42,547 nucleotides of DNA from a virus, in the IMG/VR virus record IMGVR_UViG_3300029305_001596, positions 1-42,547 of that record. One strand, written 5' to 3'. The first letter of the stretch is position 1. Every line of letters starts with the position of its first letter. Position numbers and translations under genes: made by a program. The notes under the pieces are model-generated. The model searched no databases. It worked only from the letters and a program-made list of their open reading frames with translations, and was not told the DNA's origin. Positions 22,568 through 42,547 of the stretch are shown here, in pieces.

Positions 22568-22590
22568 CGGCTCAAAAGGAGGTGCAAACA

Positions 22591-23029: not shown

Positions 23030-23050
23030 CGGCCTTGGTAGCGTGATTCC

Positions 23051-23080
23051 ATTATACGAACATCTGTTCGCATTTGTCAA
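23051..23080 (-). promoter_or_regulatory. Consensus promoter TTGACA-18-TATAAT with a Cheo-type LexA box CGAACATCTGTTCG in the spacer
   Basis: tgtcaa at 23075-23080, attata at 23051-23056, box at 23057-23070. The box matches the Gram-positive SOS consensus CGAAC-N4-GTTCG exactly. Confidence 0.75.
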
Positions 23081-23205: not shown

Positions 23206-23314
23206 AATCTTCCTCCATCCTGTTGGTTGATGTCGAAAATGTACCATGAAACGGGCGTTTCGTCTATAATCACTTCGTCCCACATTGTTTAACCATCTGA
23301 AACGGAGGTTTCCC

Positions 23315-23929: not shown

Positions 23930-23936
23930 GGAGGGA

Positions 23937-24260: not shown

Positions 24261-24265
24261 AAGGA

Positions 24266-24760
24266 GTGTTTATTTTGCAAAACAGGAAACTCAACAAAGA
24301 GATCGCATACGCAAACGCAATTGCTAATGGACATGGCCTTAAATGGCACGGGTTCCTTATTTATTTTGTTATTTGGATGAACGCTTTGTACTGTTTTACT
24401 TATAATGTAATGCCCCTTCTTGACGGAACTGTATGGGGTGAGTATTACGAATTGATAAAGCAGTACAAACCAGACCTTTTTATTTCAGGCATTCTAATTG
24501 GGGTTGCTTACCTTATTCTTGTTGTTGGCTTAGTGAGGACGCGTTTTGCTCTTGCACAGTTTAAGAAAAATGCACCTAAAAAGCTCACGCGCTGTTATAT
24601 CATTTCGATTGTTCTGCCAGCAACCTTTTGGTTGTACTCAAGTGTGAGTATAAGTGAATTTATTCCAATGCCTTGGATCATAAGCGCGTTAGGCACCTGT
24701 TTTGGGGCCTTTATCAATCATATCTATTATAAGAAACGCAGCTACCTGTTCGTAAACTGA
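24266..24760 (+). CDS. Four-TM membrane protein in an A+T-rich island (164 aa; TTG 24275 alternative start)
   Basis: Hydrophobic segments WHGFLIYFVIWMNALYCF, ISGILIGVAYLILVVGLV, CYIISIVLPATFWLY, IISALGTCFGAFINHI. Sequence is visibly more A+T-rich than its flanks. Confidence 0.7.
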   Translation: MFILQNRKLNKEIAYANAIANGHGLKWHGFLIYFVIWMNALYCFTYNVMPLLDGTVWGEYYELIKQYKPDLFISGILIGVAYLILVVGLVRTRFALAQFKKNAPKKLTRCYIISIVLPATFWLYSSVSISEFIPMPWIISALGTCFGAFINHIYYKKRSYLFVN

Positions 24761-24781
24761 CATTTAGATGGTGATAAGTCT

Positions 24782-25885
24782 ATGCCACGTCAAACATTGA
24801 AACGCCGTGAAGACGGCAGGTTCCGTGTCAAGTACCATGGCATTCAGTTCTACGGCTCCACACAGAAGGAAGCCATGCAGAAGCGCGATGAATACAAAAA
24901 ACGTCTGGAAGCAGGCATCCTTGAAGAAAACAGCATCAAAACCTATGCTGCACGCTGGGTGTCCACATACAAAAGCCATGTTTCGCCAAACATGTACAAC
25001 ACCCACGTCCGCATCCTCAATCGCCTGTGTGATCATATCGGCAATAAGCCCATGGCTGATGTCACCACCATGGACCTGCAGTCGTTCATCAACACCGTCA
25101 GCGATAAATCACAGAAAACCATCAATGCATACCGTGACACCGTCAAAGGCATGTTCAAATCCGCTTTAGGAGACCGTGTAATCGCCTTCAACCCAGCCCT
25201 TGGTATCACACTTCCAAAAGGAACCAAAGGCTCCCACAGGGCTATCACAGCCGAAGAACGGCAGCTTCTCTTATCTGTCCAGCATCGCATCCGCCCAGGT
25301 GTTCTTACCATGCTGTATGCCGGTCTGCGTCGCGGTGAAGCAATGGCTCTTGACATTGACCGTGATGTGGATTTTGAATCCAAAACCATAACCGTCAGGG
25401 AAGCTCTCCGCTTTGAGGGCGGCCATCCTGTCCTCACCAACACCAAAACAGAGGCAGGTGAGCGCACCATCCCCCTTATGCCCATTTTGGTGGAAGAGCT
25501 TAAAGGCAGGCATGGATTGCTCATGGTAGATGTTGATGGCAACCTCATGTCAGAATCAGCTTTTGACCGTGCGTGGTCTTCTTATATCACCACATGCGAA
25601 ACCACCCTCAATGGCTGTGCAAAAAGATGGTACGGCAAAAAGAAAGAACACCAGAATCTGGAACTTCCCCCATGGCGTTCTGTTGATATCCGCCCTCATG
25701 ATCTGCGCCATTCCTTCTGCACCATGCTATATGATGCTGGCATTGATCTGAAAACAGCGCAGAAATGGATGGGGCATGCTGATTATTCCATGATCATGCG
25801 AATCTATGCGCACCTCACAGAAGAAAAAGAAGCCGAAGCCAAAAAAGCTCTTCTGGGGTTCAAAACGGGGTTCAACGCTCAATGA
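24782..25885 (+). CDS. int: Tyrosine integrase (367 aa)
   Basis: C-terminal catalytic region RPHDLRHSFCTMLYDAGIDLKTAQKWMGHADYSMIMRIYAHL (R..HxxR..Y). Adjacent to a tRNA-derived attP. Confidence 0.95.
   Translation: MPRQTLKRREDGRFRVKYHGIQFYGSTQKEAMQKRDEYKKRLEAGILEENSIKTYAARWVSTYKSHVSPNMYNTHVRILNRLCDHIGNKPMADVTTMDLQSFINTVSDKSQKTINAYRDTVKGMFKSALGDRVIAFNPALGITLPKGTKGSHRAITAEERQLLLSVQHRIRPGVLTMLYAGLRRGEAMALDIDRDVDFESKTITVREALRFEGGHPVLTNTKTEAGERTIPLMPILVEELKGRHGLLMVDVDGNLMSESAFDRAWSSYITTCETTLNGCAKRWYGKKKEHQNLELPPWRSVDIRPHDLRHSFCTMLYDAGIDLKTAQKWMGHADYSMIMRIYAHLTEEKEAEAKKALLGFKTGFNAQ
25855..25875. repeat. Arm-type repeat pair GGGGTTCAA x2 left of attP (inside the integrase 3' end)
   Basis: GGGGTTCAA at 25855-25863 and 25867-25875. 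The same 19-mer GGTTCAAAACGGGGTTCAA recurs at 26092-26110. Confidence 0.6.
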
Positions 25886-25939
25886 AAGCATTATAAAAGC
25901 CTTATAAATCAAAGGATCCGCATTCGTAAAGCATTTTAT

Positions 25940-25984
25940 TTCGGGACCAAAAGGTCGCAGGTTCAAATCCTGTCACCTCGACCA
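25940..25984 (+). other. attP core: 3' portion of a tRNA-Pro(CGG) (anticodon loop to CCA)
   Basis: TTCGGGA loop, CCAAA, AGGTC, GCAGG-TTCAAAT-CCTGT, CACCTCG-A-CCA. No 5' half is present, so it is not a functional tRNA gene. Confidence 0.75.
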
Positions 25985-25987
25985 CTG

Positions 25988-26022
25988 AAAACCCTTGATT
26001 TACAAGGGTTTTCTTCTTTTTT
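25988..26022 (+). terminator. Rho-independent terminator after the tRNA fragment
   Basis: AAAACCCTTG (25988-25997) pairs with CAAGGGTTTT (26003-26012), then CTTCTTTTTT. Confidence 0.75.
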
Positions 26023-28640: not shown

Positions 28641-28698
28641 AATAAAAAAGCCGCCCCGAAGGACGGCATAAAAAAGAAGGGGAGGCCGAAGCCTCCCC
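28641..28698 (-). terminator. Two tandem intrinsic terminators ending the late operon
   Basis: GGGGAGGC-CGAA-GCCTCCCC (28679-28698) followed by TTCTTTTTTAT. GCCGTCC-TTCG-GGGCGGC (28650-28667) followed by TTTTTTATTTT (minus-strand sense). Confidence 0.8.
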
Positions 28699-28897: not shown

Positions 28898-31800
28898 TTA
28901 TTTCTTCAGCCAATTGGCCTCAAAGTTGTAGTCATCATACAGCCCGGTCTGGTACAGGATCCGGCGAATCTCCTTGCGCTGCGCTTCGCTCGCCTGCTTG
29001 TAATGTTCCTTCATGAAGCTGGTAACAGTGCTCTTGATGGAGCTTGCTTTGGTACCGGCATACTCAAGGCCCTTTACATAGCTGCCAAGGTTCTTGTAGT
29101 TGCCACGGCTCACTTCGTCGGCAATTGATGATTTATTGATGCTTTTCTGTTTGGTCGAAACAGTCTCCATTGCAGTTTCATAGCCTTCAGTTCCCTTGCC
29201 AAAAGCCTCGGCAACAGCAACGCTCTTGGCCAGATCCACAATGGCTTTCACCTTCTTTGCCTTTTCGTCATCGCTCAACGCCTGGTATTCCTTGCTGCCG
29301 ATCAGTTCTTCCACGCCAGTCACCGCAATCTCTCTGCCGTTTGCATCGGCGTAGGTCCCGCCCTTATACCACAGTTCGCCATAACGTTTCTTATACGCTT
29401 CTTTCTGGAAGGGGTCCAGCGTTATGCTGTTTCCCTTGCTGGTCAGCGTATCCTTCGTTCCGCTCAAAGCGTCAACCGGCAGCATGTCGCTTGCGCCGGT
29501 CGCTTCACTCAGCCGCAGCAGTTCATTCACAACGGCGTCATCTCTTGCATCTGTCGTGGTAAAGGGGTCAATGAAGTTGCGCCAGTTTTCCTTGGTCATC
29601 ACGCTCTGGCCGGTCACATCCACCTTCTCAGGCAGCAGCTCATTACGGATCCAGGGAAGCTTATTGATCAGTCCGCTCTTCAGTGCAGCCATCATCACAT
29701 TCTTGTCCTTGGTATCACGCACATACGGGTCCACAGCGTTGGCAAGCTGACTGATCAGTGCAGGAACGTTCTGGCTTAAGGCGCTCTCAATCAGCGTGTC
29801 ACGGATGTTTTCCGATGTGCTGCCGTACCCTTCAAAGATATCCTTCAGTCCGCTCATAAAACTCGCGTCCAGGATCTGATCCATGCTGGCTGTCGTTGCG
29901 CTCATCATAGCATTCCATGCATCTTCGTCATCTTCAAAAATGCTGTTGGCAGCAACGCCCATAATGATGGGAGAAACCGCAGGCGCAAATGTGCTCAGGC
30001 TCATGTATTCATTGGTCAAAGGATTGTAAACATAGGGCGTGTACTGCGCACCTACAGCCGTTTGCAATCCGCGCTTCTTTGCATCATCCTCGTCCTGCGT
30101 ACCCATTTTGATCACGCCCAGGCTGCCAAGCATCATGCCCAGGCCAACCATCGCACTGCCGGTCAGCCCTCGCGCCATCCCTTCCACAAACCGCTGCTGT
30201 TCAAAGGTTTCTCCGCGCACTGCTCGCATGCCGTGCTGTATGGCCGTCTGTGCAAGGCCCATGGGGCTGTACTGCCACATGCGTTTCACAATGTTGGTAG
30301 GAACGCCGGTAAACGGCATAATGTAGTCCAGTGCATCGCCGATTCCCGGTATGCGTTTCATCGCGCTCAGCGCGTCCCGCACAGCGTTATCCTCGGTAAA
30401 AGTGGCAAAGTTGGCGTCGTTCTCCGCACGCTCCACCATCTGGTCATAGGTCGGTGTGGTTCCGTCCTCGTTGTGAAGAAGCCCACGATCCAGCAGCTTC
30501 TGCTGTTCGGAAAGACTGTTCACATACGCCTTCTTCCAGAAGTTTCGGTCACCAAAGCTCATCAGGAAGCTTTCCACGTTGCGGAAGGTTTCCAGCGCAT
30601 TACTCTGATACACACGCCCTTCACGTCTGGTGTTGTACTTGTCTCCCTGCCTGTTTTGCACTTCCGCCTTGTCCACAAAGAAGTCACGGAAAGTATCCTT
30701 TGTTTCCTGTGCAAAGGCCTTCCATCCGTCAGCACGTTCCTTCATGTTCAGGGATGCCACTGTACGCTGCCCACTTGCTGCGCCTATGGCCGTGTCAAGA
30801 CCAACGGCAATTCCGTGGCTCACTGCGTTCATAGTATTCTGCGCCACGTTGCCAATCACGTTTCTCATGGGGCTGGTCAGTGTGCCAAGCATGCTCATGT
30901 ATCGCCATGTACGCAGCTTTTCGCGGCCGGATACGGGCGTAATGTTGCCAAACGCCTCGTAGGCACGGGCAATGGCAAGGTCAGCATCTCTTCCTCCGCT
31001 TTCAGCACCAGCACCAACAAACAGGCCAAGCTGTGCGCCAATGTAGTCAAGGTCGGCTGTCGTTACCACTGCAAGTCCTTCGTTCATGTACTCAAGGCGC
31101 TGCACAAGAGTAAGGCCGTTCATCTCATTCATGGGATACGGTGTGGCCAGAATAGCCTCTAACATTCGCTGTTTCACCGTGGCACGGTTGTAGTTGATGC
31201 CAGGGCGACGTTCCTTGCCAAGTTTGTACTGATCAATCAGTGCTCTCTGGTATCCGTTCAGTTCAACGCCATAACGGCTGTCGTAAGAAGCCTGTTCAGG
31301 TTCCGGCAAACCAAGCAGCTTACTGCGCACCTGTTCAGCTGCGCTATCCATAGCCTTCTTTTTGGGTGCATGCGTCCGCAGCTCCTCCTGAAGGCTATTT
31401 TCAAGGCTGCCTGCAACCATTGCCTTTGCGCCAGTGGGGCTCATCTTGCTGAACAGTTTTCGTGCCTGCAGCTCCTGGCCTGCCTTGGTGCCCTCGCGGT
31501 TGTACTTGCTGGCAATGGCAAGCAGCGTTTCTGCGTCACCGTTGTGGTTTGCAATCGCCATTATCACATTGGCTTCCGCAGTATCGTCTGCACTGAAACG
31601 TTCCAGCCCAAGCAGTCTGTCGCGTTCCTGCTCAAAACCGTTTTGCACAATGCGGTTGTACCCGCGCTCTGCCTGCTCCATGTTGGTGTCAATCTCATAG
31701 TTCAGTTCTTCCGGGTTCTGGTACATTTCCTGCTTCAGCCAGTCTGGCATGGCTTCGCTTTGCTGCACGCTCTGCCTGGCAAACTGTCTCTCGCCCATGG

Positions 31801-34800
31801 GGCGCTGCACTTGCTGTTCAGGTCCCATTGCCGAAAGCTGTATGTACTGCCGGATCATGTCGCGCAGCACGTCCTCGCTGGGCAGGCTGTACTGGGTGCG
31901 CGGATGCTGTTCCTTGTATTCTCGCACAAAACGCTCCACAATGTCCTGTGCAACAGGAAGGGTGTTTGCACCACCCTTGTACTCGCCAAGCACGCGCATG
32001 GCCTCTTCCATGTTGAAATTGGGCTGCACAGCCTCCTGCGGCGCGCCAACACCATCATTGTCGTACATCTTAAAGTCGATCAGCGTCTTCCAGTACCCTT
32101 CGGGTGCTACCCAGTGGCCATCTTCGTCTTTGCTCAGGAACATGTCAAACTTCGGAATGCGTCCGTCCTCTTCGCACATGCGAAGGTATGTCCGGGCATT
32201 CTCATCGCCGCTCTTGCTGTAGTCCCAGTAGTCAATGGGGTAGAAGTTTTCTTCCACGTTCTTATACTTGAATTTTCCGTTCTTGTACTGGCCAACCACG
32301 CGGCGTTCGTTCTGCCAGTCGGTAAAATTCTCATATTCGTCCAGCCCCATCAGCTTCAGCTCACGCTCGCCCCATCCGCTCTTGTGGAAGGGGATGATGT
32401 AGTCGAGCTGCGGATCCTTCATCGCGGCAAGCACATGCTCCCGGCTCACGCCAACAATAATGGTGCCAACATTCTTGCTGTACCGTTCACGCAGCGCAAG
32501 CGCATCGGCAATGTCCATGCCCTCAGTCGGGCTGAATGCAAGCGTTCCGTCAGGGTTGAGACCGTTTCCTTCAGCAATCAGGCTCAGGTTGATCTTGATG
32601 CCTGTGTCACCAAACACAGCCGCAAAGTTCGGCACCTTCGTATACGCCTGGCTGGTAAGTCCCTTGGCGCTCATATCCAGCACAGCCTGCATCATGTCGA
32701 TCAGATGCGGGGTCTCAAAATCGCTGAAGCTCTGCACGCGTAAGCCGCCGATTTCAGTTATCTTCTTGATCTGGCCCTTGGTAAGGCTGCGAACATCGCC
32801 TCGGTATTCCGTGCGCAGCTGCACCACCTTCGGGTTGTTACTGCCCTTGCTGTTCATGTTGTCAATGAAATCCTGATAGGCTTTCGGGTGCTCGTGGCGC
32901 AGTTTCTCAAGACCGTCGCTGGTGGTCACCTCATCAAGCCTTGGCTTGTATTCGCCGTTGTAGCCCTCCAGCCATTCACCGGCAAACTTGCCAAGCTGCC
33001 TGCGTCGGCTCTCCACATAACACACGCCGCACGGGCTTTCATAGCCGCTTTCCGCCAGCATGTTGCGAAGACCAATCAGATCATCGCTGGTAAGCACCGT
33101 ATTGGGCAGCAGATGCTGAATCGCGTCAAAGGTTCCCTGATACAAAAGACGCTTGGCGCACAATGTACTTGCGTCCAGCGTCTTCACATATTCCTGATTT
33201 TGCTTCAGCATCACCTGGTTGTCGGCTGCAATGTAATCCAGACGATCCTTGTCAGCGGCAATCGTTGCAGCAACGCTGTTCACATCGTCGATCCAGCGTT
33301 CCACCTTTATGGCGTCAAAACCCTTGCCCAACAGCTGCTGCCTTGCTGTTTCCTTTTCCTTTTCCGTCCAGCTGGAAAGGCTGTAGTCCTTGGCAACCGT
33401 GCCGGAAGGGGTCTCTTCGGCAATCACATTGCCGTCAGAAGTTATTTCTCGGTTTTCAGCGGGTACTTCGCCACGATCTCCCTGGCGAATGCCTCGCGCA
33501 TTTCGTCCTGCTCCTGCTCCGTTTTCCCCTGAAGCTTCATTGCGTTTTCCGCCTTCACGGAAATCGGTACTTTCCTCTCCATACACGCTGTGAAGTATGC
33601 TTCGTTGCGTTTCAAGGTCGTATCCCTCCTGCTCAAGTTCTATCGCATCCTGCTCTATAGCGTTTACCAGTTCAACGTTCTCTGCATCGTATACCTCAAG
33701 CACAGCTTCAGGTTCGCCGTTTGCATCAGTATACACCAGAACATTGTCCATTGCAACAAGGCTGCCGCCGTTCTTCCGCTCCACAAACTGGTATCCACGG
33801 TAGTTCTTGTCGTTCATGTTGGAACGCAGCCGTGCGTACTCGTTGGGGTCAAGCAGGTCAGGAAGTGAATACTGCAAACGCTCCCCTGTCACATCGCCTG
33901 CTTCAAGCCCGTATTCAGAAAGGTCGATAGCGCCTCCCTTTCTGGGGATGGGTGTGTATGCTTCCCTGATCTTTGCTTTTTCAGCTTCGGATGCGTTCTG
34001 GTATTCCTCGGATGCCATCACTTCCTCCAGCTGCTGGCGAAGAATCGCATCCGTGTCAGCATCGTCAAGAATGCGGGTTACCTTCATTGCACCAGTGATG
34101 ATCCAAGGAACTGTATCGGGATTGGGGTTCGTGCGGTATCTGTAATAACCGGCAGTTCCGTCCTCCTCACGAGGCAATCTGGGCAAACCAGCAAGAGAAT
34201 GCTGGAACTTGCCATTTGCATTGTAACCGTAGCTCATAGCCTCTTCCTGATAGTCGTGATCAGCTGCGCACTCGCATTCTGCCCACACAAAGTTTTCGGG
34301 GAACAATTCCTTCTTCCCGATTTCGGGGTTCAGCCTGTTAAACTGTGTTGCCTTGGGAGAATCGCCAAGGTGCCAACCGGGTCGGTATGCAAGCTGCGTC
34401 TTGCCCGTGTTGGTTCCTTTGCCGCCAGCCTGTACCTGCGGTCGGCCAGTCTTGCTGTCTGCTCCGCGAGGCGCTGCATCTGCATTCAACCAAACGCCAA
34501 CAGGGGTCGGCTCGCCACCCGGATTTGCAACCATCGGCGGGTACAAACCGGGCTTGTTCTTAAAAACAGCAAACACCTTGTAGCCCTTGATGGTGTGCAC
34601 AGGGTCAGGTTCCTCACGAAGCGAATACTGAATGCCGTCTGTGGGGAACTCTCTCTGCTTATTTTCTGCACCCAGCGCCGTTTCAAACAGCTCTCTGGCA
34701 CGGTCCAGCTCGCTGTAATCCTCGCGTGCAATGCCCGTCAGCTTGCTGATGAAGTTCTTGATCGTCTCAAGGATCCTGCGTGCCACACTGGGCTTTTCAG

Positions 34801-37800
34801 CGGCCAGACGATTGATACTCTCCTCATCGCCGTACAGGATCTTGCGGGTCAGGTCGGCTACGATCTCGCGCCGCGCCTCATCCTCAGTAAGCGGCGTTGC
34901 ATCCACAGTCGGGTCCAGTGCAGCCATCATCTCAAGCTGCGTGTTGTATCGCTTCATGCGTGCAGCAATATCCCTGTCAAGCTGCCCTTCATCACTGCCT
35001 GAATACGCAATGCCAATCAGAGCGTCTGCAAACTCCTGATAGCTTTCGCTCTGTTCCATGCGATGGGTCAGTTCGTGCAGCACCGTGCCGTACAGCATGT
35101 CGCTCTGCGTGGCGTTCTGGTCAATCTCCACCTTGCCGGTTCTGGCGTTGTAGCTGCCATTATAACGCAGCGCAGTACCTCCCTTGGTAGTGTCCACCAC
35201 GTCAAACTGCACGCCGTACTTCTTGGTCAGCTGCTGCATAAACCTGTTGCGGCTCTCCTGTGCTTCAGGGGTCATCTCTCGCTGGATCTCCCTGTAGATG
35301 GCGTCGATCCGTTGCTGTTCTTCAGGCGTTGCATCTGCAAAGTTGCTGCTGGTAAAGTCAGCAATGCCCATTGCCGTCACGTTGCCGCTTTCACGGGCAG
35401 CGCTGCGCACGGCAGCACGCTCTGCCTTGACAATCGCATTTTGGTTGGCAACGGCAGCCAGCTCCGTCTGCGCCATCGCCAGTGCGGTTTCCTGCACATT
35501 AGCCTTGGCGGCTTCGTATTCACCCTGTGCTTCCTGTGCCTCGCGCTGGGCAGTGACCATCTCTTCCTGCGCCTGGTTCTTTTCTTCGATAACTGCCAGC
35601 ACTTCGTTGGTCGCCTTGGGGTCGGCAGGGTTTTCGTTCATGCGCCGGGTGGCGTCGGCCAGCTTCTGCTGCGTCAGTTCTTTCTTGCGCTGTGCGCTTT
35701 CAAAACGATCTGCTGCCTTGCTCACGCTCTTCTTTGCCGCTTCCACAGCAGATCCATCAATGGCTCCGCTGGCCATCATTTCGCCTGCCTTGGCTTCGGT
35801 CACCACTTTGGTGGCGCGTTCACGAACCGACTCAGCAATGGTCGGATCCTGCAAATCCTGCGCCACCGCATTCACCAGCGTATTCGCATCTTCAGCAGTG
35901 ATGGCGGATTTCTTCATCAGGCTTTCGGCAACCTTCACGCTGTTGGCATAGGAGGGGAACACAGACACAGAACTGCCAATGGAGATCAATCCGCCCATCA
36001 GCGCATCAGCAGTCAGCTCACGGCCATATTCCTGCCAGTCGCGCTCCAGCGGATTCTCTCCCTTGATCAGGCCCGTCACAGCCTCGGTCACAATGTTTTC
36101 CGCAGGCTCCTGCACCGCTTCGTTCACAGCCGTCTTGCCAATGTTCACCATGAAATGACCAAACATCTTGCCCCAGCGCGAAAGCCCGGCCACCACACTG
36201 GAACCGGGAACAAGGGCCAGTTTCTCCACAACCTCTTCCACATAGGGCATGTTGCTGGCCTCGATGTTTTTCAAAATACCGTCCCACTGGCTCATGGCAG
36301 CCGTCACCGCAGCAGCGCCCAAACCGGCAGCAGCGCTTGTCAGGTAGTCTTCACCTTCGTTGTAGCTGTCCCACATTTCGCGCAGTCCGCTCTCTGCGGC
36401 AAAGGGAGTGCTGCTGATCATACGGTTCAAAAACTTCAGTTTATCGCCAAACACAGCAGTGGATGCATTGCCAAGCGCCTTTGCAACGCCGCCCATCTGC
36501 TGCATCTTGATCATCTCACTGCCAACGGTGCCAGCCATAATCTCAAGCGGCGTTCCGTTCTCCAAAAGCACCTCGTTGTGCCCAGCCAGTGTGGTGTTCA
36601 TTTCATTGGCAAATTCAGCGCCGTAATCGGCTACCTCTTCATTGCCAAAAAGCTTTCCTGCACCGGTAATGATGCTGCCAACAAACTTGTCCACCAGGTC
36701 AGTAATGGCATAAGCCGTGTGATCCAGCGCCCACATCGCAACATTGGAAACGCCAATGCCGTCGTTGTTCTGCGCTTCCACCAGCTTGCCGTCCATGCCA
36801 AGCACACCGTCCAGCCAGCCAATGAACCCGCCAAGCTCTTCATCGCCAATGTCGTAGGCTTCCTTCAGCAGCATCTCATACTCAGCCAGCTCCACGCGAA
36901 CATCGGGATCCATCATTTTTCTGGGCAGATCACCGGCAATCGCCATCTGCATCAGCGCAGCGGTCGCCTTCTGGCTGCCCTCACTGTGCACCATGTCCTG
37001 TATGTATTCGTCGCCGCTTTGCTTCACAGCGCCTTCGATCAGCTGAAACTGGTACTGGCATGCAGTGCGGTAGTCGTTGTTGTACAGTGCCTCGTCGATC
37101 CCTGCATACAGTTCTTCTTTCGTCATAGAAGGGCTTTTAACAGGGGTTTCAGAAAGGGATTCGGGTGTTAAAGCCTCAACTTCCGGCGTGGGTTTATAGC
37201 CCTCCTGCGTGCGTTTTGCGGCACCGTCAGTATCGGTGCGCATCACAGCGTCATTGCCGCTCTTTGCGCCTGCCCACAAGCGCCCCTCGCTGTAAATGTC
37301 AGCGGGGGGAGTTGCGTACAGGCTCTGCTTGCTGGCCATCACACCAGCGCCCGGTATGGTGCTTTCGTCAATCAGACTGCCACGGGCATTCACCTGGGCA
37401 ATCTTTTCCGCGTTCACCGCAAGGCCAAGCGCTGCTTCGTTCTTGGCCGCATTGTCCTCTGCCCACTTGGTGTCCCACTGCAATCGGATGCTCTGTTCCA
37501 GCGCTTCTTTGTCAAAGCTGATCTCATGCAGCGGTTCCACTTCCATCTTGTCCAGATGAGGCGTGCGGCTGGTGCCGTCAGCGTTGTTGAAGATGAAATG
37601 CACCGCTTCATCCGCGCTGTCAAATCCACCGCTGCGGATCGTGTCCTGCATCCGCTTGTGGAAGTCGGCCAGTTCACGGTCGTATGCCTCCGTAGCCAGA
37701 AAACTCTGGTAGGTATCGCGGAAGGCTCGCTTCTCTTCATTGGTGCCTCCGGCCAGCACCTTTCGGTAGTTCTGGTCAAAGTAATCCTTGCTGGTGGCTT

Positions 37801-37984
37801 CTTTGCCAAAACGCTCACGGGCAGCAGTGTATCGCGGGGCACTCAACAACCTGCTCCGCTCAATCTCCGCCGCTTTTGAAGGACGATTCGTCCCAGAAGT
37901 CCCATTGCTGGCTGGTTTCTCCCAGCCTTCTTCCTTTGCTATGCTCTGCAGCCGGTTCAGTGCTTTCTTGAACTTATCGTCCAT
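28898..37984 (-). CDS. Giant multidomain (polyvalent-type) protein, 3,028 aa, with an HExxH metallopeptidase-like motif; probable virion-delivered protein
   Basis: Uninterrupted ORF. ATG 37984 lies 5 nt after GAGGG (GTG 37996 alternative). GTVLHELTHRMEQSE. Coiled coils, Gly/Ala-rich hydrophobic helices, and several large blocks I cannot assign. Confidence 0.85.
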   Translation of the reverse strand: MDDKFKKALNRLQSIAKEEGWEKPASNGTSGTNRPSKAAEIERSRLLSAPRYTAARERFGKEATSKDYFDQNYRKVLAGGTNEEKRAFRDTYQSFLATEAYDRELADFHKRMQDTIRSGGFDSADEAVHFIFNNADGTSRTPHLDKMEVEPLHEISFDKEALEQSIRLQWDTKWAEDNAAKNEAALGLAVNAEKIAQVNARGSLIDESTIPGAGVMASKQSLYATPPADIYSEGRLWAGAKSGNDAVMRTDTDGAAKRTQEGYKPTPEVEALTPESLSETPVKSPSMTKEELYAGIDEALYNNDYRTACQYQFQLIEGAVKQSGDEYIQDMVHSEGSQKATAALMQMAIAGDLPRKMMDPDVRVELAEYEMLLKEAYDIGDEELGGFIGWLDGVLGMDGKLVEAQNNDGIGVSNVAMWALDHTAYAITDLVDKFVGSIITGAGKLFGNEEVADYGAEFANEMNTTLAGHNEVLLENGTPLEIMAGTVGSEMIKMQQMGGVAKALGNASTAVFGDKLKFLNRMISSTPFAAESGLREMWDSYNEGEDYLTSAAAGLGAAAVTAAMSQWDGILKNIEASNMPYVEEVVEKLALVPGSSVVAGLSRWGKMFGHFMVNIGKTAVNEAVQEPAENIVTEAVTGLIKGENPLERDWQEYGRELTADALMGGLISIGSSVSVFPSYANSVKVAESLMKKSAITAEDANTLVNAVAQDLQDPTIAESVRERATKVVTEAKAGEMMASGAIDGSAVEAAKKSVSKAADRFESAQRKKELTQQKLADATRRMNENPADPKATNEVLAVIEEKNQAQEEMVTAQREAQEAQGEYEAAKANVQETALAMAQTELAAVANQNAIVKAERAAVRSAARESGNVTAMGIADFTSSNFADATPEEQQRIDAIYREIQREMTPEAQESRNRFMQQLTKKYGVQFDVVDTTKGGTALRYNGSYNARTGKVEIDQNATQSDMLYGTVLHELTHRMEQSESYQEFADALIGIAYSGSDEGQLDRDIAARMKRYNTQLEMMAALDPTVDATPLTEDEARREIVADLTRKILYGDEESINRLAAEKPSVARRILETIKNFISKLTGIAREDYSELDRARELFETALGAENKQREFPTDGIQYSLREEPDPVHTIKGYKVFAVFKNKPGLYPPMVANPGGEPTPVGVWLNADAAPRGADSKTGRPQVQAGGKGTNTGKTQLAYRPGWHLGDSPKATQFNRLNPEIGKKELFPENFVWAECECAADHDYQEEAMSYGYNANGKFQHSLAGLPRLPREEDGTAGYYRYRTNPNPDTVPWIITGAMKVTRILDDADTDAILRQQLEEVMASEEYQNASEAEKAKIREAYTPIPRKGGAIDLSEYGLEAGDVTGERLQYSLPDLLDPNEYARLRSNMNDKNYRGYQFVERKNGGSLVAMDNVLVYTDANGEPEAVLEVYDAENVELVNAIEQDAIELEQEGYDLETQRSILHSVYGEESTDFREGGKRNEASGENGAGAGRNARGIRQGDRGEVPAENREITSDGNVIAEETPSGTVAKDYSLSSWTEKEKETARQQLLGKGFDAIKVERWIDDVNSVAATIAADKDRLDYIAADNQVMLKQNQEYVKTLDASTLCAKRLLYQGTFDAIQHLLPNTVLTSDDLIGLRNMLAESGYESPCGVCYVESRRRQLGKFAGEWLEGYNGEYKPRLDEVTTSDGLEKLRHEHPKAYQDFIDNMNSKGSNNPKVVQLRTEYRGDVRSLTKGQIKKITEIGGLRVQSFSDFETPHLIDMMQAVLDMSAKGLTSQAYTKVPNFAAVFGDTGIKINLSLIAEGNGLNPDGTLAFSPTEGMDIADALALRERYSKNVGTIIVGVSREHVLAAMKDPQLDYIIPFHKSGWGERELKLMGLDEYENFTDWQNERRVVGQYKNGKFKYKNVEENFYPIDYWDYSKSGDENARTYLRMCEEDGRIPKFDMFLSKDEDGHWVAPEGYWKTLIDFKMYDNDGVGAPQEAVQPNFNMEEAMRVLGEYKGGANTLPVAQDIVERFVREYKEQHPRTQYSLPSEDVLRDMIRQYIQLSAMGPEQQVQRPMGERQFARQSVQQSEAMPDWLKQEMYQNPEELNYEIDTNMEQAERGYNRIVQNGFEQERDRLLGLERFSADDTAEANVIMAIANHNGDAETLLAIASKYNREGTKAGQELQARKLFSKMSPTGAKAMVAGSLENSLQEELRTHAPKKKAMDSAAEQVRSKLLGLPEPEQASYDSRYGVELNGYQRALIDQYKLGKERRPGINYNRATVKQRMLEAILATPYPMNEMNGLTLVQRLEYMNEGLAVVTTADLDYIGAQLGLFVGAGAESGGRDADLAIARAYEAFGNITPVSGREKLRTWRYMSMLGTLTSPMRNVIGNVAQNTMNAVSHGIAVGLDTAIGAASGQRTVASLNMKERADGWKAFAQETKDTFRDFFVDKAEVQNRQGDKYNTRREGRVYQSNALETFRNVESFLMSFGDRNFWKKAYVNSLSEQQKLLDRGLLHNEDGTTPTYDQMVERAENDANFATFTEDNAVRDALSAMKRIPGIGDALDYIMPFTGVPTNIVKRMWQYSPMGLAQTAIQHGMRAVRGETFEQQRFVEGMARGLTGSAMVGLGMMLGSLGVIKMGTQDEDDAKKRGLQTAVGAQYTPYVYNPLTNEYMSLSTFAPAVSPIIMGVAANSIFEDDEDAWNAMMSATTASMDQILDASFMSGLKDIFEGYGSTSENIRDTLIESALSQNVPALISQLANAVDPYVRDTKDKNVMMAALKSGLINKLPWIRNELLPEKVDVTGQSVMTKENWRNFIDPFTTTDARDDAVVNELLRLSEATGASDMLPVDALSGTKDTLTSKGNSITLDPFQKEAYKKRYGELWYKGGTYADANGREIAVTGVEELIGSKEYQALSDDEKAKKVKAIVDLAKSVAVAEAFGKGTEGYETAMETVSTKQKSINKSSIADEVSRGNYKNLGSYVKGLEYAGTKASSIKSTVTSFMKEHYKQASEAQRKEIRRILYQTGLYDDYNFEANWLKK

Positions 37985-37992
37985 CGGAACCC

Positions 37993-38886
37993 TCACTTCT
38001 TCTTTTTGTCCAGAATACTTGCAGCTTTATTGGCAGCCAATCCGCTCTTGCTGCTCACCTTGCTTGTCAGGCTCTGCATCGGGGTAGGCGCGGCAGGCGG
38101 TTTCTGCAGCGCGTCATACAGGTTCTTTGCCGCTTCCTTGTTGTATACCTGTGCATTGGCAGCCAGCGCGTCAACCAGCGTGTTCACAGGCTTGCCGGTG
38201 TAGGACGCGGTGGTGGTTTTCTTGTTTCCGCTTCCGCTGCTTCCGCCGCCTCCGCTGCTTCCGCCGCCGCCATACTTGGCGTTGAACTCTGCCTGCCACA
38301 TCGCATACTCACGGTCAGCCAGTGCTTCGGCGTTCTGATATTCATATATCTGCATCGCAAGCTGGTTGGCATCCTGCCCACGGCCATACTGCTGGTTCTC
38401 CAGTTCATCCAGGTAGGCCAGAATATCCGCCTGCTCCTGTGCGCTCAGGCTCTCCAGTTCAGCCGCCAGCTGGCTTCCAAGCAGCGCCTTCTGCTGCTGC
38501 AGGTTCTTGGTCTGCGCCGCCTGCGTGTCCAGTATTGCCTGCTGCGCTTCTACGCCCTGCATGCCAATGTTGGCCAGGCTGGCCGCATTGTAGCTGCTGC
38601 GCTGCATGCCGCGGCCAAGGCTTGCACGGTCAAAGGCACTGACTGTCTGCGCGTAGTTCTTCGCGCTCTGCTCAAGTTGCTTGCCGTATGTCGCATCAAG
38701 GCTTGCAAGCTGCTGGTCTATCAGCATTGCATTGGTATCATGCTCCTGCTGCGCTGCCAGCTCTTTGGCGTCGTATACCGCGCCATATCGGTCCTGCGCT
38801 TTCTTGCGCATTTCTTCTTCGGTCAGTGGAGTGTAGCTCTGCCCGTTCAGTTTGGCAAGCAGCTGCTCCAGGTTGGAACTGGCCAT
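37993..38886 (-). CDS. Coiled-coil protein with Gly/Ser linker (297 aa), unknown late function
   Basis: ATG 38886 lies just after the holin stop. Gln/Ala-rich heptads. GGGGSSGGGGSSGSG linker. Lys-rich tail. Confidence 0.6.
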   Translation of the reverse strand: MASSNLEQLLAKLNGQSYTPLTEEEMRKKAQDRYGAVYDAKELAAQQEHDTNAMLIDQQLASLDATYGKQLEQSAKNYAQTVSAFDRASLGRGMQRSSYNAASLANIGMQGVEAQQAILDTQAAQTKNLQQQKALLGSQLAAELESLSAQEQADILAYLDELENQQYGRGQDANQLAMQIYEYQNAEALADREYAMWQAEFNAKYGGGGSSGGGGSSGSGNKKTTTASYTGKPVNTLVDALAANAQVYNKEAAKNLYDALQKPPAAPTPMQSLTSKVSSKSGLAANKAASILDKKKK

Positions 38887-38887
38887 C

Positions 38888-39091
38888 TTACTCCACCTCC
38901 GGCAGTCCGGCAATGCTGGTCAGCATACTGGTTATGCCTGCCACGCAGGCAACGCTCAGTACCGCAACCCAGTTAACGTCCATCACGCCAACCATGTCGC
39001 CTGCCAGCATGCCAACCATAGACTGCGCCATCGTCTTCAGCGCACGCACGCCAGCGCAGGTCCACCACTTCGCAGTAAAAATGCTGTTCAT
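38888..39091 (-). CDS. Holin (67 aa), r1t/actinophage-like two-TM type
   Basis: WWTCAGVRALKTMAQSMVGMLAG...VNWVAVLSVACVAGITSMLTSIAGLPEVE matches the remembered pattern of that holin family. AAGGAGGA SD. Confidence 0.65.
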   Translation of the reverse strand: MNSIFTAKWWTCAGVRALKTMAQSMVGMLAGDMVGVMDVNWVAVLSVACVAGITSMLTSIAGLPEVE

Positions 39092-39103
39092 CGCTCTTCC
39101 TCC

Positions 39104-40240
39104 TTATATCGTCAAAACAACGTCCCGTATCTCGTTGATCACGCCTGCAGCCGGATACCCAGGTACGGCTGCAAAGCTGTATTGCCCTTTATTCGCCGCC
39201 AGAAGGCATTCATTCATCTTCTTTTCAAGGCCTTCCATCTGCCTGCGCCAGTCTCCAAAAACGCCTACAACGCCTTCCAGCACGCAATCCGGCACACTGT
39301 AGAAAGCGCACGCGCTGTTCACTGCCGCAAGCAGTTCTTCAATGTCTGCCCTGTGGCTCACCTGCTCATTGCTGATCACATCGCCAGGCGCGATTGCACG
39401 TCCCCATGAATGCCCCGTTACCGTAAAACTCACACCGTCCGTGGCACTCTCTGCACCGATGGTATCCACCAGCTTGTATCTCACGGTATGCGTTCCGTTC
39501 GTAAGCCCACTCAGATGGTCGTATACCTTGCTGTCGCCAGTTGCTGTCGCCACATCCGTCCATGCTCCGCTGTCGATGCTCCGCTTCAACATCACCATAT
39601 CGCCGTCAGGGTCGGCAGGGCACTGGATCCTGATGGTGGGAGAATGGCAGAAGGTGATCGCTCCGCTGCTGGGAACCTCCACAGTCGGCGTTCCGGCAGC
39701 AGAATTGCCATTCAGCAGCGTGCTGGCCACCGTGTATCCGCTGTAGTACGTCGATCCTGCGCTGCCCTTGGTTCGCACCCTGTACTGCCTCACCATTCCG
39801 GCGTTTACCGTCACACTCACGGTTCTTCCCGTCACATCCTCGTCTCCGCTCCATGCGCCCCAGGTGGAGGAATTGATGCTTCTCTCCCTCCAGCTCACGC
39901 CAAAGGCCGTAAACGCGTTCAGGTCGCCGCCACCGCCGCCTGTAATGGTCATCACTTTGGTAACCGTGTCTATCGCAAGGCTCGTCGGCGCAGTGCAGTA
40001 GTCCGTGGTCGTTTCGTATACCGGCTCAATCTCCTGGCAGTAGGTGTAGTTCAGCCAGCCTGCCGGGTCTATCATCAGGTATCGGCTGTTGGTGATCCTG
40101 CTTGCGTAATCCTTGTGAAGATAAATCACAGTTCCGCTGTGGATTCTTGTTTTGGTACCACTTCCATCCGCGTACTGGTAGTAGTACATTGCGCTGCCGC
40201 CTTTGGCTATGGCATGGTATTTGGTAATAACTTTTGCCAT
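39104..40240 (-). CDS. Late structural-like protein with beta/Ig-like repeats (378 aa), possible fibre or spike component
   Basis: ORF track. Beta-rich Thr/Ser/Gly composition. Lies next to a fibre-motif gene. No catalytic motif seen. Confidence 0.5.
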   Translation of the reverse strand: MAKVITKYHAIAKGGSAMYYYQYADGSGTKTRIHSGTVIYLHKDYASRITNSRYLMIDPAGWLNYTYCQEIEPVYETTTDYCTAPTSLAIDTVTKVMTITGGGGGDLNAFTAFGVSWRERSINSSTWGAWSGDEDVTGRTVSVTVNAGMVRQYRVRTKGSAGSTYYSGYTVASTLLNGNSAAGTPTVEVPSSGAITFCHSPTIRIQCPADPDGDMVMLKRSIDSGAWTDVATATGDSKVYDHLSGLTNGTHTVRYKLVDTIGAESATDGVSFTVTGHSWGRAIAPGDVISNEQVSHRADIEELLAAVNSACAFYSVPDCVLEGVVGVFGDWRRQMEGLEKKMNECLLAANKGQYSFAAVPGYPAAGVINEIRDVVLTI

Positions 40241-40597: not shown

Positions 40598-41386
40598 TCA
40601 TATCGTTGCCGTGGCATGCTTCTTTGCGCTTTCAAGGTGGATCACCGGGTTGCTCACGCTCGCAGGTTTGTATGCCTGTGCCTGCCCATAACCGCCGTAA
40701 TTCAGCGCAGCAGCCGTGTTTACAAACAGTTTCTCCACCATCTTTGCGCAGCAGTTGCTGGCGTCGGTGCGGTAGTAGCTTTCCTTGAATACCATTGGCA
40801 GATGCGTATGCCCGTGGATGTAGATGTCCGCATCCACAATGCCGTTCAGGTCAGCCAGACGGTTGGCCTTTCCGCCTTCCTTCCTGCCACCTCCGCTTCC
40901 GTGGGTCACATACAGGCTGTACCACTGCTTCGGGTTCTTGTCCCTGTGGTAGTGGCCGCTGGTTCGTGTCCCAAAACGCAAAAAGACAAGCACACCATCA
41001 GGGTGATACTTGTCTTCCACACCAAGTTCTCTGCATACCAGCCGCATCGTGTCTATGCCGTCCGTTCGGTAGATCCTTGCCTCATGGTTGCCGCAGCACG
41101 CCGCGATGACCTTTTCCTTCACAGGCTTCAGCGCAGTCACAGCCGCATTGATCTGCTGCATGGGGGAAAGCTGCTCGCTGTACAGGTCGCTGGGGCTTGC
41201 CTTGGTCGCAGTGTTCATGATATCGCCGTTCAGCACCACCACGCCGTATGGGTCATTTGCAGCCTGCTCAATCCGCTGTGCAATAATGTCAGTTGCTGAA
41301 TGCTCGTCGCCTATGTGCAGGTCGCTCAGGCAGTACACATTGCACCGTTCCCAATTCACGGGAAAATCAGCTCTCACACTGTGCAT
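40598..41386 (-). CDS. Calcineurin-like metallophosphoesterase (262 aa)
   Basis: Motifs DLHIGD, NGDIM, GNHE, GHTH in canonical order. ATG 41386 shares one base with the upstream stop. Confidence 0.85.
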   Translation of the reverse strand: MHSVRADFPVNWERCNVYCLSDLHIGDEHSATDIIAQRIEQAANDPYGVVVLNGDIMNTATKASPSDLYSEQLSPMQQINAAVTALKPVKEKVIAACCGNHEARIYRTDGIDTMRLVCRELGVEDKYHPDGVLVFLRFGTRTSGHYHRDKNPKQWYSLYVTHGSGGGRKEGGKANRLADLNGIVDADIYIHGHTHLPMVFKESYYRTDASNCCAKMVEKLFVNTAAALNYGGYGQAQAYKPASVSNPVIHLESAKKHATATI

Positions 41387-41712
41387 CAGTTCACCCCGAT
41401 CCTGCTCAGAAGAAAACCAACGCATGCAGCCAAAACCACCTTCGCCACCTCACGGGTGTAGTATTTCCACTTCTCGGCAGGCTCCGCTTTCAGCTCGTCA
41501 ATGTCCTTGGCCATGCTGTCCACCTTGCGGTTCAGGCTCTGCTGCCCGTGCATCACATCGCGCAAACTCAGCGCCAGCTCCTGCACTGCATCCAGCAGTT
41601 TTTTCTGCTCCTTCTGCTGCGCGTACAGGGTCTTAATATTCTCCTCGTTGGCGCTCACGCGGCCTGTCAGCTCTGCAATCTCGCGCTCCTGTTTCAGCAT
41701 CTCGTGTTCCAT
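41386..41712 (-). CDS. XhlA-like lysis-associated protein: coiled coil plus C-terminal TM (108 aa)
   Basis: Heptad N-terminus, then KWKYYTREVAKVVLAACVGFLLSRIG. Lies immediately downstream of the endolysin. Confidence 0.55.
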   Translation of the reverse strand: MEHEMLKQEREIAELTGRVSANEENIKTLYAQQKEQKKLLDAVQELALSLRDVMHGQQSLNRKVDSMAKDIDELKAEPAEKWKYYTREVAKVVLAACVGFLLSRIGVN

Positions 41713-42524
41713 TATCCTTCACCGCCTTTCACCAGCATAAGGATCTCGTCCAGCTTGGCCAGCACCTTGTCTTCAAAGCTCATGGGGTCTCCATTGCCAT
41801 TGTCGGTAGGTTCAGCCATGCCAATCACGCGCAGGAACTTGGTCTGCATAAAGCCGTACTTGCCGTTCCACTGTACCGTCGCCCAGTCATTCGTGCGCTC
41901 ACGAACGATCACCTCAGCGCCAAAAGGTACCTTGACCACCGTGTTGTAGCCTGCGTCGGTTGCAGGGGTGCTGCGCATGCGCACCGGCTCGCGGTCTTCG
42001 CTGTACACTACCGCCAGCTCAGGCAACGACGCTTCGCCAGTAAAATCGTCATCCCGCTGGTCTTCATACTCCACATCTGCCGCTTCTCCACAATACGTCC
42101 AGCTATTCAGGCTGGTATCGTAATCAATACCGTCCACGCCATCTGTCTGCGTGCAGTGGGTGATCACCAGCGAATCAACGCTCGTTACAACGCCAACGTG
42201 GTAGTAATCAAGCAGCGTGCTGGCAAAATACCTTCCACCCTGTTTGTATCGCTCATGAAGGTCATATCCGGTGCTTCCCTCGTCCCTTGTTTTGTACACA
42301 AGGTTGCCAAGCTCAACAGCCGTGTCCTTGCGGATGGGCGCAAGCTCTGCCATTTCAAACCGCGCAAAGTAGTTGGTGCTGTGCATGGGGTATTCCCTGC
42401 CCAGCGCACCCATGATCAACCCGATGCAGTCGCAGGTGCCGTCGCTGCCGTCGCCGCCTGTGCGGTAGGTTGGGTTGCTTTCGGCAATTCTGCGCACGTT
42501 CTCCACAAACCGGGTCACGTTCAT
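41712..42524 (-). CDS. Endolysin: NlpC/P60-type cysteine peptidase plus C-terminal SH3b domain (270 aa; ATG 42542 alternative)
   Basis: GSDGTCDCIGLIMGALG (Cys nucleophile context) and YYHVGVV. C-terminal VRMRSTPATDAGYNTVVKVPFGAEVIVRERTNDWATVQWNGKYGFMQTKFL is SH3-like. Confidence 0.8.
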   Translation of the reverse strand: MNVTRFVENVRRIAESNPTYRTGGDGSDGTCDCIGLIMGALGREYPMHSTNYFARFEMAELAPIRKDTAVELGNLVYKTRDEGSTGYDLHERYKQGGRYFASTLLDYYHVGVVTSVDSLVITHCTQTDGVDGIDYDTSLNSWTYCGEAADVEYEDQRDDDFTGEASLPELAVVYSEDREPVRMRSTPATDAGYNTVVKVPFGAEVIVRERTNDWATVQWNGKYGFMQTKFLRVIGMAEPTDNGNGDPMSFEDKVLAKLDEILMLVKGGEG

Positions 42525-42547
42525 ACGTTCACACGCTCCCATCCATC
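42421..42547. repeat. Terminal overlap identical to 1-127
   Basis: Read directly. Confidence 0.95.

Follow-up and report, generated by a model that had tools for sequence, protein, structure and literature searches.

A giant protein of a likely temperate, short-tailed phage resembles polyvalent cargo proteins and carries a short motif at its module junctions

Introduction

What kind of protein is encoded by a single reading frame that takes up more than a fifth of a phage sequence? This question is raised by the IMG/VR virus record IMGVR_UViG_3300029305_001596, of which we analysed positions 1 to 42,547 (the window, 42,547 nucleotides in all). One minus-strand gene of 9,087 nt, 21.4% of the window, encodes a protein of 3,028 residues (335 kDa, pI 4.9), here called the giant protein. 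An earlier reading of this DNA from its letters alone (the original prediction) had proposed a polyvalent and probably injected protein. Polyvalent proteins of phages and conjugative elements were described by Iyer, Burroughs, Anand, de Souza & Aravind in 2017 as polypeptides of 2-15 domains with disparate, mostly enzymatic activities, encoded in late or virion gene neighbourhoods and often fused to MuF (PMC5512222). Our analysis indicates that the giant protein is very probably a cargo protein of the polyvalent type, with conserved ends, a variable middle and a short peptide motif at the junctions between its modules.

A family of giant proteins with a fixed chassis and a variable middle

The giant protein as a whole gave no match in Pfam, NCBIfam or PDB sequences, and its sole match among PHROGs was phrog_30118 (aa 1131-1318), a family of unassigned function. 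Metagenomic protein collections yielded ~320 homologous proteins, all of them giant (1,900-5,177 aa). Local BLAST and HMMER (jackhmmer) mapping of these homologues delimited at least six modules, designated A to F from the N-terminus (Table 1). Module order was compared in the 110 homologues that reach or exceed 2,000 aa: BF was found 33 times, BEF 26 times and BE 13 times, with other orders rarer, and the order of the window protein, BCEF, occurred once. We interpret these orders to indicate that the ends of the protein are kept as a chassis whilst the middle varies; the chassis is the N-terminal part ending in a zincin-like domain (module B) together with module F at the C-terminus. In other members the variable middle holds ART-PolyVal, PBECR3, LPD23, LPD38, Zeta_toxin or MuF_C. 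Across the homologues the Pfam families found were ART-PolyVal, MuF_C, PBECR1/3/5, LPD3/13/23/38, InPase and Zeta_toxin, and further enzymes, DNA methylase and NUDIX, were seen in the cargo position.

Module shuffling is ongoing. In L006, a relative whose DNA is 92-94% identical to the window on both flanks of the indel, cassette C is missing, such that 813 nt in the window (the cassette with its linkers) correspond to 36 nt there. GC content at third codon positions is 0.56 in cassette C and 0.49 in D, the lowest value of the gene, compared with 0.63-0.68 in the rest of the gene, which suggests that C and D (33386-34627) were recently acquired from a lower-GC source. The original prediction of a mosaic protein is borne out by the varying orders (BF, BEF and BE) in 110 giants and by the loss or gain of cassette C between near-identical phages. 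Scans for relatives of module F found one locus in GTDB species genomes (Candidatus Ventricola, Clostridia, a metagenome-assembled genome) and two in IMG/VR. The family is rare in these curated collections.

A short motif at the module junctions

The pattern [YF]S[LIV] occurs exactly four times in the 3,028 residues, each time as xYSL and each time at a module junction (B/C, C/D, D/E and E/F, Table 1). All four copies fall on block boundaries that had been set earlier, and independently, by BLAST. For the longer pattern [QKRD][YF]S[LI], four copies were observed against 0.31 expected, and none of 2,000 shuffles reached four. Elsewhere in the window, 7,513 further encoded residues hold five matches to [YF]S[LI], none of them in junction-motif context. 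Ahead of module F, the form xQYSLPS is conserved in the homologues P0001, P0002, P0173 and P0186.

The motif is a feature of the family as well as of this protein. In 292 homologues, [KRQ][YF]S[LIV][KRPS] was observed 350 times against 15.6 expected (22-fold), in 277 distinct contexts and with a median spacing of 233 aa, which is domain-sized. It lies at most 60 aa from domain ends and almost never within domains. In four MuF-type proteins of other lineages (P0142, P0137, P0163 and P0158), the motif stands 13-60 aa ahead of each Pfam domain, with few exceptions, the domains preceded in this way being C, PBECR3, InPase, ART-PolyVal, LPD13, LPD23, MuF_C and DNA_methylase; P0098 and P0156 are without it. 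Its distribution along the chain is also uneven. In 63 giants that have both B and F, the ~1,425 aa ahead of the zincin are free of copies, whilst the ~1,020 aa from the zincin to the F core hold 87 and F itself holds 4. The C-cassette indel falls between two motif copies, and the junction left in L006 reads KQY followed by DLLD.

What the motif does is a harder question. It may be a cleavage site, although we think this less likely than not, and it is likewise no more than a possible reading, taken jointly with new folds for C and E, that the motif is a general punctuation mark of polyvalent proteins, cut or handled by the resident zincin, a partner protease or the ejection machinery so as to free each cassette as an effector of its own in the infected cell, and serving also as a point of cassette exchange. 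Several caveats apply. The pattern was defined after the four sites had been seen, and the enrichment counts are not independent events, because the homologues are related to one another. The AlphaFold2 (AF2) model places YSL 1120-1122 in a β-strand at the start of the confidently modelled region of C; this strand may not be exposed, which speaks against cleavage by the zincin in cis. With regard to the zincin as the protease, P0142 carries many motifs and no HExxH, though it may be a fragment, and motif-rich proteins show no clear enrichment of HExxH. A search of Iyer et al. 2017 (PMC5512222) and Jamet et al. 2017 by text terms found no description of the motif. If confirmed on a wider, phylogeny-corrected sample, the junction motif would be a new feature of the polyvalent class.

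The conserved ends of the protein

Module B is the only part of the giant protein to which an activity can be given a name. The original prediction had noted a lone HExxH near aa 985; there is indeed exactly one in the protein, and it lies at aa 970-974. The motif is kept in 45 of 45 diverse homologues, and an alignment of 30 homologues shows H970, E971, H974, E977, Y982, Y1013 and E1040 to be invariant. An acidic residue three positions past HExxH was described by Iyer et al. for a phage-type MPTase clade (PMC5512222). Twenty of the 30 members match DUF6782, a putative metallopeptidase family, and fewer match M48, M13, MPTase-PolyVal or SprT-like families. The Pfam matches are weak, with none at the curated cut-off for this sequence, and a PDB profile search likewise gave weak zincin matches. 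The HExxH, the invariant residues and the weak matches to metallopeptidase families together indicate that B is a divergent zincin. In the account of Iyer et al., the zincin, with HExxH and a Glu further downstream, is the hub domain of polyvalent proteins, and zincin-mediated processing of these proteins was predicted (PMC5512222).

The region ahead of the zincin is far less widespread. Only ~15 homologues extend into module A, and a search with the N-terminal 1,110 aa found 156 cluster representatives among 1.84 billion. Within module A, two helices rich in Gly and Ala carry no charged residues (aa 547-565 and 661-680). Between A and B, Ala, Glu, Gln, Lys and Arg make up 53% of residues in aa 700-900, in keeping with the Ala/Glu/Gln coiled coil described originally.

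Module F closes the protein at the other end. It was found in ~100 homologues, always near the C-terminus (its end lies a median of 112 aa away), and is ~50-60% identical to the query in eight aligned homologues, with ~120 invariant positions. No match to F was found in PDB profile, Pfam or PHROG searches. It includes the conserved-looking stretch MRNVIGNVAQNTMNAVSHG (aa 2373-2391) and a conserved hydrophobic hairpin, the first helix of which is GLTGSAMVGLGMMLGSLGVI (aa 2606-2625). Together with the two helices of module A, this hairpin (aa 2606-2625 and 2660-2679) agrees with the earlier description of Gly/Ala-rich hydrophobic helices in the N- and C-terminal thirds; all of these segments were identified by hydropathy alone.

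Cassettes C, D and E

More than 120 polyvalent proteins from Bacteroidales and Clostridia carry cassette C at 55-70% identity, and in all it is present in hundreds of such proteins; its partner domains there include MuF_C, ART-PolyVal, LPD3/13/23, PBECR and InPase. Profile searches and per-member scans gave no match to C in Pfam or PDB sequences. The AF2 model is mostly β and confident (predicted local distance difference test score, pLDDT, 85.5; predicted template modelling score, pTM, 0.80). Foldseek found no neighbour for it in the PDB (best E 0.28), whilst in BFVD it matched two uncharacterised viral proteins of ~1,400 aa (E 2.5e-9, TMq 0.60) and, weakly, DUF7666 proteins. We considered a RES- or ADP-ribosyltransferase-like fold for C and rejected it: such a fold appeared only at Foldseek rank 34 (9r35_D, E 2.8, probability 0.11, TM 0.27/0.37), and Pfam gave no RES or ADP-ribosyltransferase match at E<=1. 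C also exists on its own. A stand-alone version of 171 aa (WP_014426143.1), ~35% identical, is encoded at 5010-5525 of the Selenomonas ruminantium plasmid pSRC3, within a long run of small hypothetical genes on the same strand beside an integrase. A second match lies on a Butyrivibrio proteoclasticus replicon.

Cassette D is small, and its best counterpart is part of the homologue P0019 (Table 1). Cassette E has 65 homologues and ~40 invariant positions, including C1609, C1652, C1655, C1937, R1749, S1752, D1755, K1783 and H1867, a polar and Cys pattern that would fit an enzyme or a metal site. Neither Pfam and PHROGs nor PDB profiles yielded a match to E, the apolipoprotein and GTA_TIM matches being noise. 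Its AF2 model (pLDDT 91.1, pTM 0.88) consists of a helical subdomain followed by repeated β-α units, and Foldseek found nothing similar among 350,542 PDB chains (best E 0.36, query-normalised TM <=0.18). (β/α)8 barrels are mildly enriched among the sub-threshold Foldseek matches, and a barrel-like core for the modelled E is only a lead.

The original prediction had singled out three blocks as enzymatic in appearance, and these correspond to C, E and F. Pfam, PHROGs, PDB profiles and, for C and E, Foldseek gave them no anti-defence or cell-wall-degrading function, nor any other that could be named. In the giant protein only the zincin can be named, whilst its homologues carry ADP-ribosyltransferase, RNase, pyrophosphatase, kinase-like toxin and methylase domains.

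Gene structure and genome context

The minus-strand open reading frame (ORF) runs without interruption from a GTG at 37996 to 28898 (3,032 codons). Translation probably begins at the ATG at 37984, to judge from its spacing from the ribosome-binding site GAGGG, which ends 5 nt before it, and from the stop codon of the upstream gene, 8 nt before it; the resulting frame confirms the single uninterrupted 3,028-aa ORF of the original prediction, which put it at 21% of the genome. The overlap of GAGGG with the upstream TGA indicates that translation is coupled to that of the upstream late gene. Two tandem terminator-like hairpins follow the stop codon, and the giant gene is therefore the last of the late operon, as had been proposed. 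Every sequence string quoted originally was located in the giant protein. Tandem Repeats Finder detected no fibre- or tape-measure-type repeats in the gene, only one 21-nt array of 2.1 copies, and so did not bear out the one finding of this kind that had been named as able to overturn the proposal.

Uninterrupted homologues exist on independent contigs, including P0001 (97% identical, 2,769 aa) and P0002 (62%, 3,017 aa). The giant ORF is one genuine gene and not an artefact. In L001, a 42.7-kb relative, the giant (3415-13501) appears in the gene calls as a pair of ORFs (2,204 and 1,166 aa) sharing 29 nt. This interruption falls within module E and probably reflects a single sequencing frameshift, with programmed frameshifting as the alternative.

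All large genes of the window are on the minus strand, and they were named with PHROGs and Pfam (Table 1); a replication module and a DNA methyltransferase gene are also present. Genes at 101-538 and 41712-42542 are neighbours in L001 and in a further relative, L002, so that the gene order continues across the window ends (1/42547) and the window looks complete, either circularly permuted or arbitrarily opened. Read across these ends, the order is endolysin-like, metallophosphatase, collagen-like fibre, Ig-like (378 aa) and DUF7934 genes, then the giant gene. The metallophosphatase gene, which PHROGs label 'DNA repair exonuclease', thus sits among tail-fibre and lysis genes. DUF7934 homologues of ~270-306 aa, 45-46% identical to that of the window, were found by tblastn directly upstream of the giant in L001 (2599-3402) and L002 (9167-9988), and L006 has a 296-aa gene (4102-4992) in the same position, inside the DNA-aligned stretch. 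The DUF7934 protein may be an assembly or packaging partner of the giant. The 67-aa holin ORF, shorter than the length cut-off of the ORF list, differs little from the Phage_r1t_holin gene in L006, and its location indicates that lysis genes are interleaved with tail genes just upstream of the giant.

Relatives share this layout, with a P22_portal/SU10_portal-type portal, the giant beside holin and endolysin genes, and an integrase nearby. In L002 and L006 the holin gene precedes the giant gene; in L004 the order is reversed. PHROG and Pfam annotation detected no tail tube, sheath or tape measure gene in the window or in the relatives; the original prediction had already remarked on the missing tail tube. 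From this, the P22/SU10-type portal and the nearby integrase, the phage is likely temperate and short-tailed. Host labels of the homologues, as given by their sources, are Clostridia, Oscillospiraceae or Eubacteriales.

Two regions of the window stand apart in composition or similarity. Positions 22000-26000 form a low-GC island (46-50% versus ~56%) with an AT skew near zero; it contains the tyrosine integrase and presumably other lysogeny genes. A pentapeptide-repeat gene at 21210-21785 on the minus strand, especially 21550-21721, shows 83-90% nucleotide identity over ~170 nt to phages of Bordetella, Salmonella, Edwardsiella, Yersinia and Rheinheimera, which is odd for a Clostridia phage. This similarity may reflect repetitive coding sequence rather than transfer.

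Table 1 Features of the giant gene and of its surroundings in the window. Residue numbers refer to the giant protein
Feature	Position	Strand	Details and basis
Giant protein coding sequence	28898..37984	minus	3,028 aa + stop; ATG 37984 preferred over GTG 37996
Ribosome-binding site GAGGG	37990..37994	minus	read from sequence; overlaps upstream TGA (37995-37993)
Two tandem intrinsic-terminator-like hairpins	28698-28679 and 28667-28650 (span 28650..28698)	minus	strong; ~200 nt past stop codon
Module A	35915..37984	minus	aa 1-~690; N-terminal region
Ala/Glu/Gln/Lys/Arg-rich, coiled-coil-like helical stretch	35285..35887	minus	aa ~700-900; composition; weak Pfam Uds1, aa 746-833
Module B, zincin-like metallopeptidase	34670..35212	minus	aa 925-1105; homologue alignment and Pfam
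Only HExxH of the protein (HELTH)	35063..35077	minus	
Junction motif 1, GIQYSLRE	34619..34627	minus	YSL aa 1120-1122; B/C boundary
Module C	34010..34594	minus	aa 1131-1325; β-rich cassette; contains the GYKVFAV...WAECE block of the original prediction
Indel carrying cassette C and linkers	33861..34673	minus	window versus L006
Junction motif 2, RLQYSLPD	33863..33871	minus	YSL aa 1372-1374; C/D boundary
Module D	33440..33856	minus	aa 1377-1515; small cassette; 52% identical to part of P0019
Junction motif 3, AKDYSLSS	33377..33385	minus	YSL aa 1534-1536; D/E boundary
Module E	31925..33307	minus	aa 1560-2020; enzyme-like α/β domain; includes the CGVCYVESRRRQ / IIPFHKSGWGERE block
Junction motif 4, RTQYSLPS	31883..31891	minus	YSL aa 2032-2034; E/F boundary
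Module F	29165..31867	minus	aa 2040-2940; C-terminal module
Conserved hydrophobic hairpin in F	29948..30169	minus	Gly/Ala-rich helices around an acidic loop
DUF7934 gene, 306 aa	37993..38913	minus	Pfam E 2e-8; directly upstream of giant gene
r1t-type holin, 67 aa	~38915-39115	minus	similarity to L006 gene
Calcineurin-like metallophosphatase	40598-41425	minus	Pfam Metallophos
SH3-type endolysin-like gene	41712-42542		PHROGs/Pfam
LtfC-like tail gene	807-2501		PHROGs/Pfam
'Internal virion protein'-like gene (phrog_511)	2658-4139		PHROGs/Pfam
Portal, P22/SU10 type	4139-5887		PHROGs/Pfam
Major head protein	6626-7819		PHROGs/Pfam
Large terminase subunit (TerL)	8649-10061		PHROGs/Pfam
Tyrosine integrase	24782-25885	plus	PHROGs/Pfam

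Comparison with known giant phage proteins

Two of the known kinds to which the giant protein can be compared are documented, the polyvalent proteins described in 2017 and the giant virion proteins of temperate podoviruses. Like the polyvalent class, it is giant and multi-modular, is encoded at a late or virion locus, has a constant zincin, is subject to shuffling, and has homologues with ART-PolyVal, PBECR, LPD, InPase and MuF_C domains. MuF_C is present in some family members, and the late-operon position holds for the giant itself. The following points tell against the reading we favour. Unlike the class, the giant protein lacks both the Pfam polyvalent families and the MuF N-terminal domain; at E<=1, Pfam returned only a coiled-coil artefact for the whole protein. 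To the extent that Pfam covers them, the domains described for the class do not include C, E or F, and neither Pfam, PHROGs and PDB profiles nor, for C and E, Foldseek gave C, D, E or F an assignable activity. A tblastn search against 50,697 GenBank phages, a set that should include the validated giants, gave no match, and BLASTP of Bcep22 gp75 against the giant protein found no similarity (best E 0.94). Hydrophobicity is no more than moderate in the two helices of F (Kyte-Doolittle means over 19 residues, 1.65 and 1.49). We nevertheless consider the giant protein very likely to be a polyvalent-type cargo protein. The original prediction of this class stands through the Pfam families of the homologues, the conserved zincin and the shuffled modules, and not through any match of the protein's own to Pfam families of the class.

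The closest parallels in overall design are single giant late proteins of podoviruses. Phi24B gp47 (2,811 aa) has LPD5, LPD1, LPD38 and MuF_C domains, is abundant in virions by mass spectrometry whilst invisible in cryo-electron microscopy, and has been proposed to be an encapsidated ejection protein (bioRxiv 10.64898/2026.04.10.717836). The preprint words MuF_C as a peptidase, which we rejected, as MuF_C has no HExxH. The related PTXU04 gp25, a putative polyvalent protein of 2,198 aa, is needed for plating (PMC11879866). These 933W-like Escherichia coli phages are temperate podoviruses with one giant late protein, as appears to be the case here, and differ in their Gram-negative host, in their LPD5/LPD1/LPD38/MuF_C domains and in having no tblastn similarity to the giant protein.

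Mass spectrometry places JC1 gp69 (4,515 aa; its gene fills 22.1% of the genome) in the virion on the basis of 51 unique peptides (PMC9144972). It and Bcep22 gp75, the DarB-like proteins of Lessievirus podoviruses, resemble the giant protein in occupying ~22% of the genome at the end of the morphogenesis module, beside lysis genes and before a terminator. They differ in their lytic transglycosylase, methylase/helicase (DarB-like), LPD3 and LPD38 domains. Bcep22 gp75 (L007) has three D-x-x-x-[KAR]-F-S-V motifs, at aa 3208, 3433 and 3685, flanking its LPD3/HExxH region. These may be a degenerate form of the junction motif; loose motifs number four in gp75 against 2.4 expected, which is not significant alone.

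The virion RNA polymerase gp50 of phage N4 (3,500 aa) is encapsidated and injected and has a zincin region, as cited in PMC5512222. To that extent it resembles the giant protein in size and in its zincin. N4, however, is lytic and requires gp50 for early transcription, and no RNA-polymerase domain was found in the giant protein; as a temperate phage with a repressor/integrase module, the phage of the window has no evident need for an early-transcription polymerase of the N4 kind. The ejection proteins of P22 (gp7, gp16 and gp20) and T7 (gp14, gp15 and gp16) share with our case a P22-type portal, hydrophobic helices and a late, probably internal protein, but they are several separate proteins of 200-1,300 aa with no counterpart to the cassette architecture. 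No similarity to known ejection proteins was found by the tblastn search, in PHROGs (phrog_30118 only) or in PDB sequences.

The junction motif has a parallel of its own in the pre-toxin junction motifs of polymorphic toxins, such as VENN in CdiA, short conserved peptides at the site of exchange of variable cassettes. The motif of the giant protein is similarly short, conserved and located at a cassette-exchange point. It differs in recurring many times in one polypeptide, before every cassette, and the sequence [KRQ][YF]S[LI] is unrelated.

Discussion

How might such a protein work? We propose that a fixed chassis, comprising the N-terminal region, the coiled coil and the zincin, with F at the other end, holds the exchangeable cargo C, D and E. 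A [KRQD]-[YF]-S-[LI] motif stands ahead of each cassette, and cassettes are gained and lost between motif copies. The capsid may enclose a few copies of the giant protein, which would exit by the tail before the DNA or together with it; hydrophobic helices in F and in the N-terminal region could help to cross or dock at the membrane. The cargo modules would then act inside the newly infected cell. Their release could occur by cleavage at the junction motifs, for which the resident zincin would be the obvious candidate protease. Packaging and injection are, in our judgement, probable, given the operon position, the prediction of Iyer et al. and the experimental precedents. Taken as a whole, with gut Clostridia as the hosts infected, this account is the explanation we favour, with some reserve.

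Of the competing explanations, the one that fares best is that the giant is a purely structural ejection or conduit protein, a fused functional analogue of P22 gp7/gp16/gp20 or T7 gp14-16 that forms a channel through the envelope and whose cassettes are structural or receptor-adapting spacers. It would make sense of a hydrophobic hairpin conserved in the universal module F, of the further hydrophobic helices in the N-terminal region and of the want of an assignable catalytic activity in C, D, E and F. The phi24B authors suggest a conduit role for gp47 (bioRxiv 10.64898/2026.04.10.717836), and apart from the phrog_511 gene no separate ejection-protein genes were recognised beside the portal. 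Mere spacers, however, would hardly be ART-PolyVal, InPase, PBECR RNases, Zeta toxin, DNA methylase and NUDIX, all of which occupy the cargo position in homologues. Cassette C is moreover dispensable in the near-identical phage L006 and occurs as a stand-alone 171-aa ORF on a plasmid, and the invariant polar and Cys pattern of E looks to be of the enzyme or metal-site type. We therefore regard a purely structural role as unlikely.

A still less probable explanation is an unpackaged factor, acting late within the cell or released at lysis, such as a weapon resembling polymorphic toxins or a superinfection or defence factor. Such a role would suit the gene's place in relatives, where it borders the lysis cassette at one end of the operon, close to the lysogeny module, and the missing MuF N-terminal domain is a portal-binding one. 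Hosts may also capture polyvalent proteins for their own use, according to Iyer et al. (PMC5512222). Yet the gene has no promoter of its own and is coupled translationally to the preceding late gene, the protein has no signal peptide, and no small adjacent gene stands out in the gene lists as what would be an immunity gene. The podovirus giant polyvalent proteins with proteomics, phi24B gp47 and JC1 gp69, are all virion-associated.

That the protein is a tape measure or tail fibre of a long-tailed phage is very improbable. Its great length, its Gly/Ala-rich hydrophobic helices and coiled coil and its place at the distal end of the structural module do recall a tape measure. A tape measure spans ~1.5 Å per residue, and a ruler of 3,028 aa would imply a tail of ~450 nm, whereas tail tube, sheath and chaperone genes are lacking and the portal is of P22/SU10 type. 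There are no tandem or fibre repeats, neither the whole protein nor F matches a tape-measure or fibre PHROG, and a cassette indel and shuffling are unlike a length ruler. It is scarcely credible that the gene is an artefact of assembly or annotation in which sequencing errors joined several ordinary genes: the two overlapping ORFs called in L001 would speak for it, but that split looks like a single frameshift within E and not a gene boundary, one frame is kept over 2,769-3,028 codons in three independent assemblies, and homologues of 2,000 aa or longer number more than 100.

With the polyvalent-type cargo protein as the preferred reading, what is new here lies in its parts. Three conserved modules, C, E and F, are without relatives in Pfam, PHROGs (beyond the phrog_30118 match given above) and PDB, and C and E fold confidently without a PDB neighbour. 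That C and E are new folds with new activities delivered to gut Clostridia, with the YSL motif punctuating their cleavage or exchange, is a doubtful extension. In 2017, polyvalent proteins were proposed to enter the cell with the DNA and to be processed as polyproteins, with no processing site defined; the junction motif, if confirmed more widely, would make this hypothesis directly testable. If the motif is a cleavage site, the products would be of 122, 28, 18, 57 and 111 kDa, and those after the first would begin at or beside residues 1120, 1372, 1534 and 2032. As a simple guide, the motif could also be used to divide other giant proteins of phages into their modules. New activities in anti-defence or host takeover by gut phages may well reside in C, E and F, which are good candidates for them.

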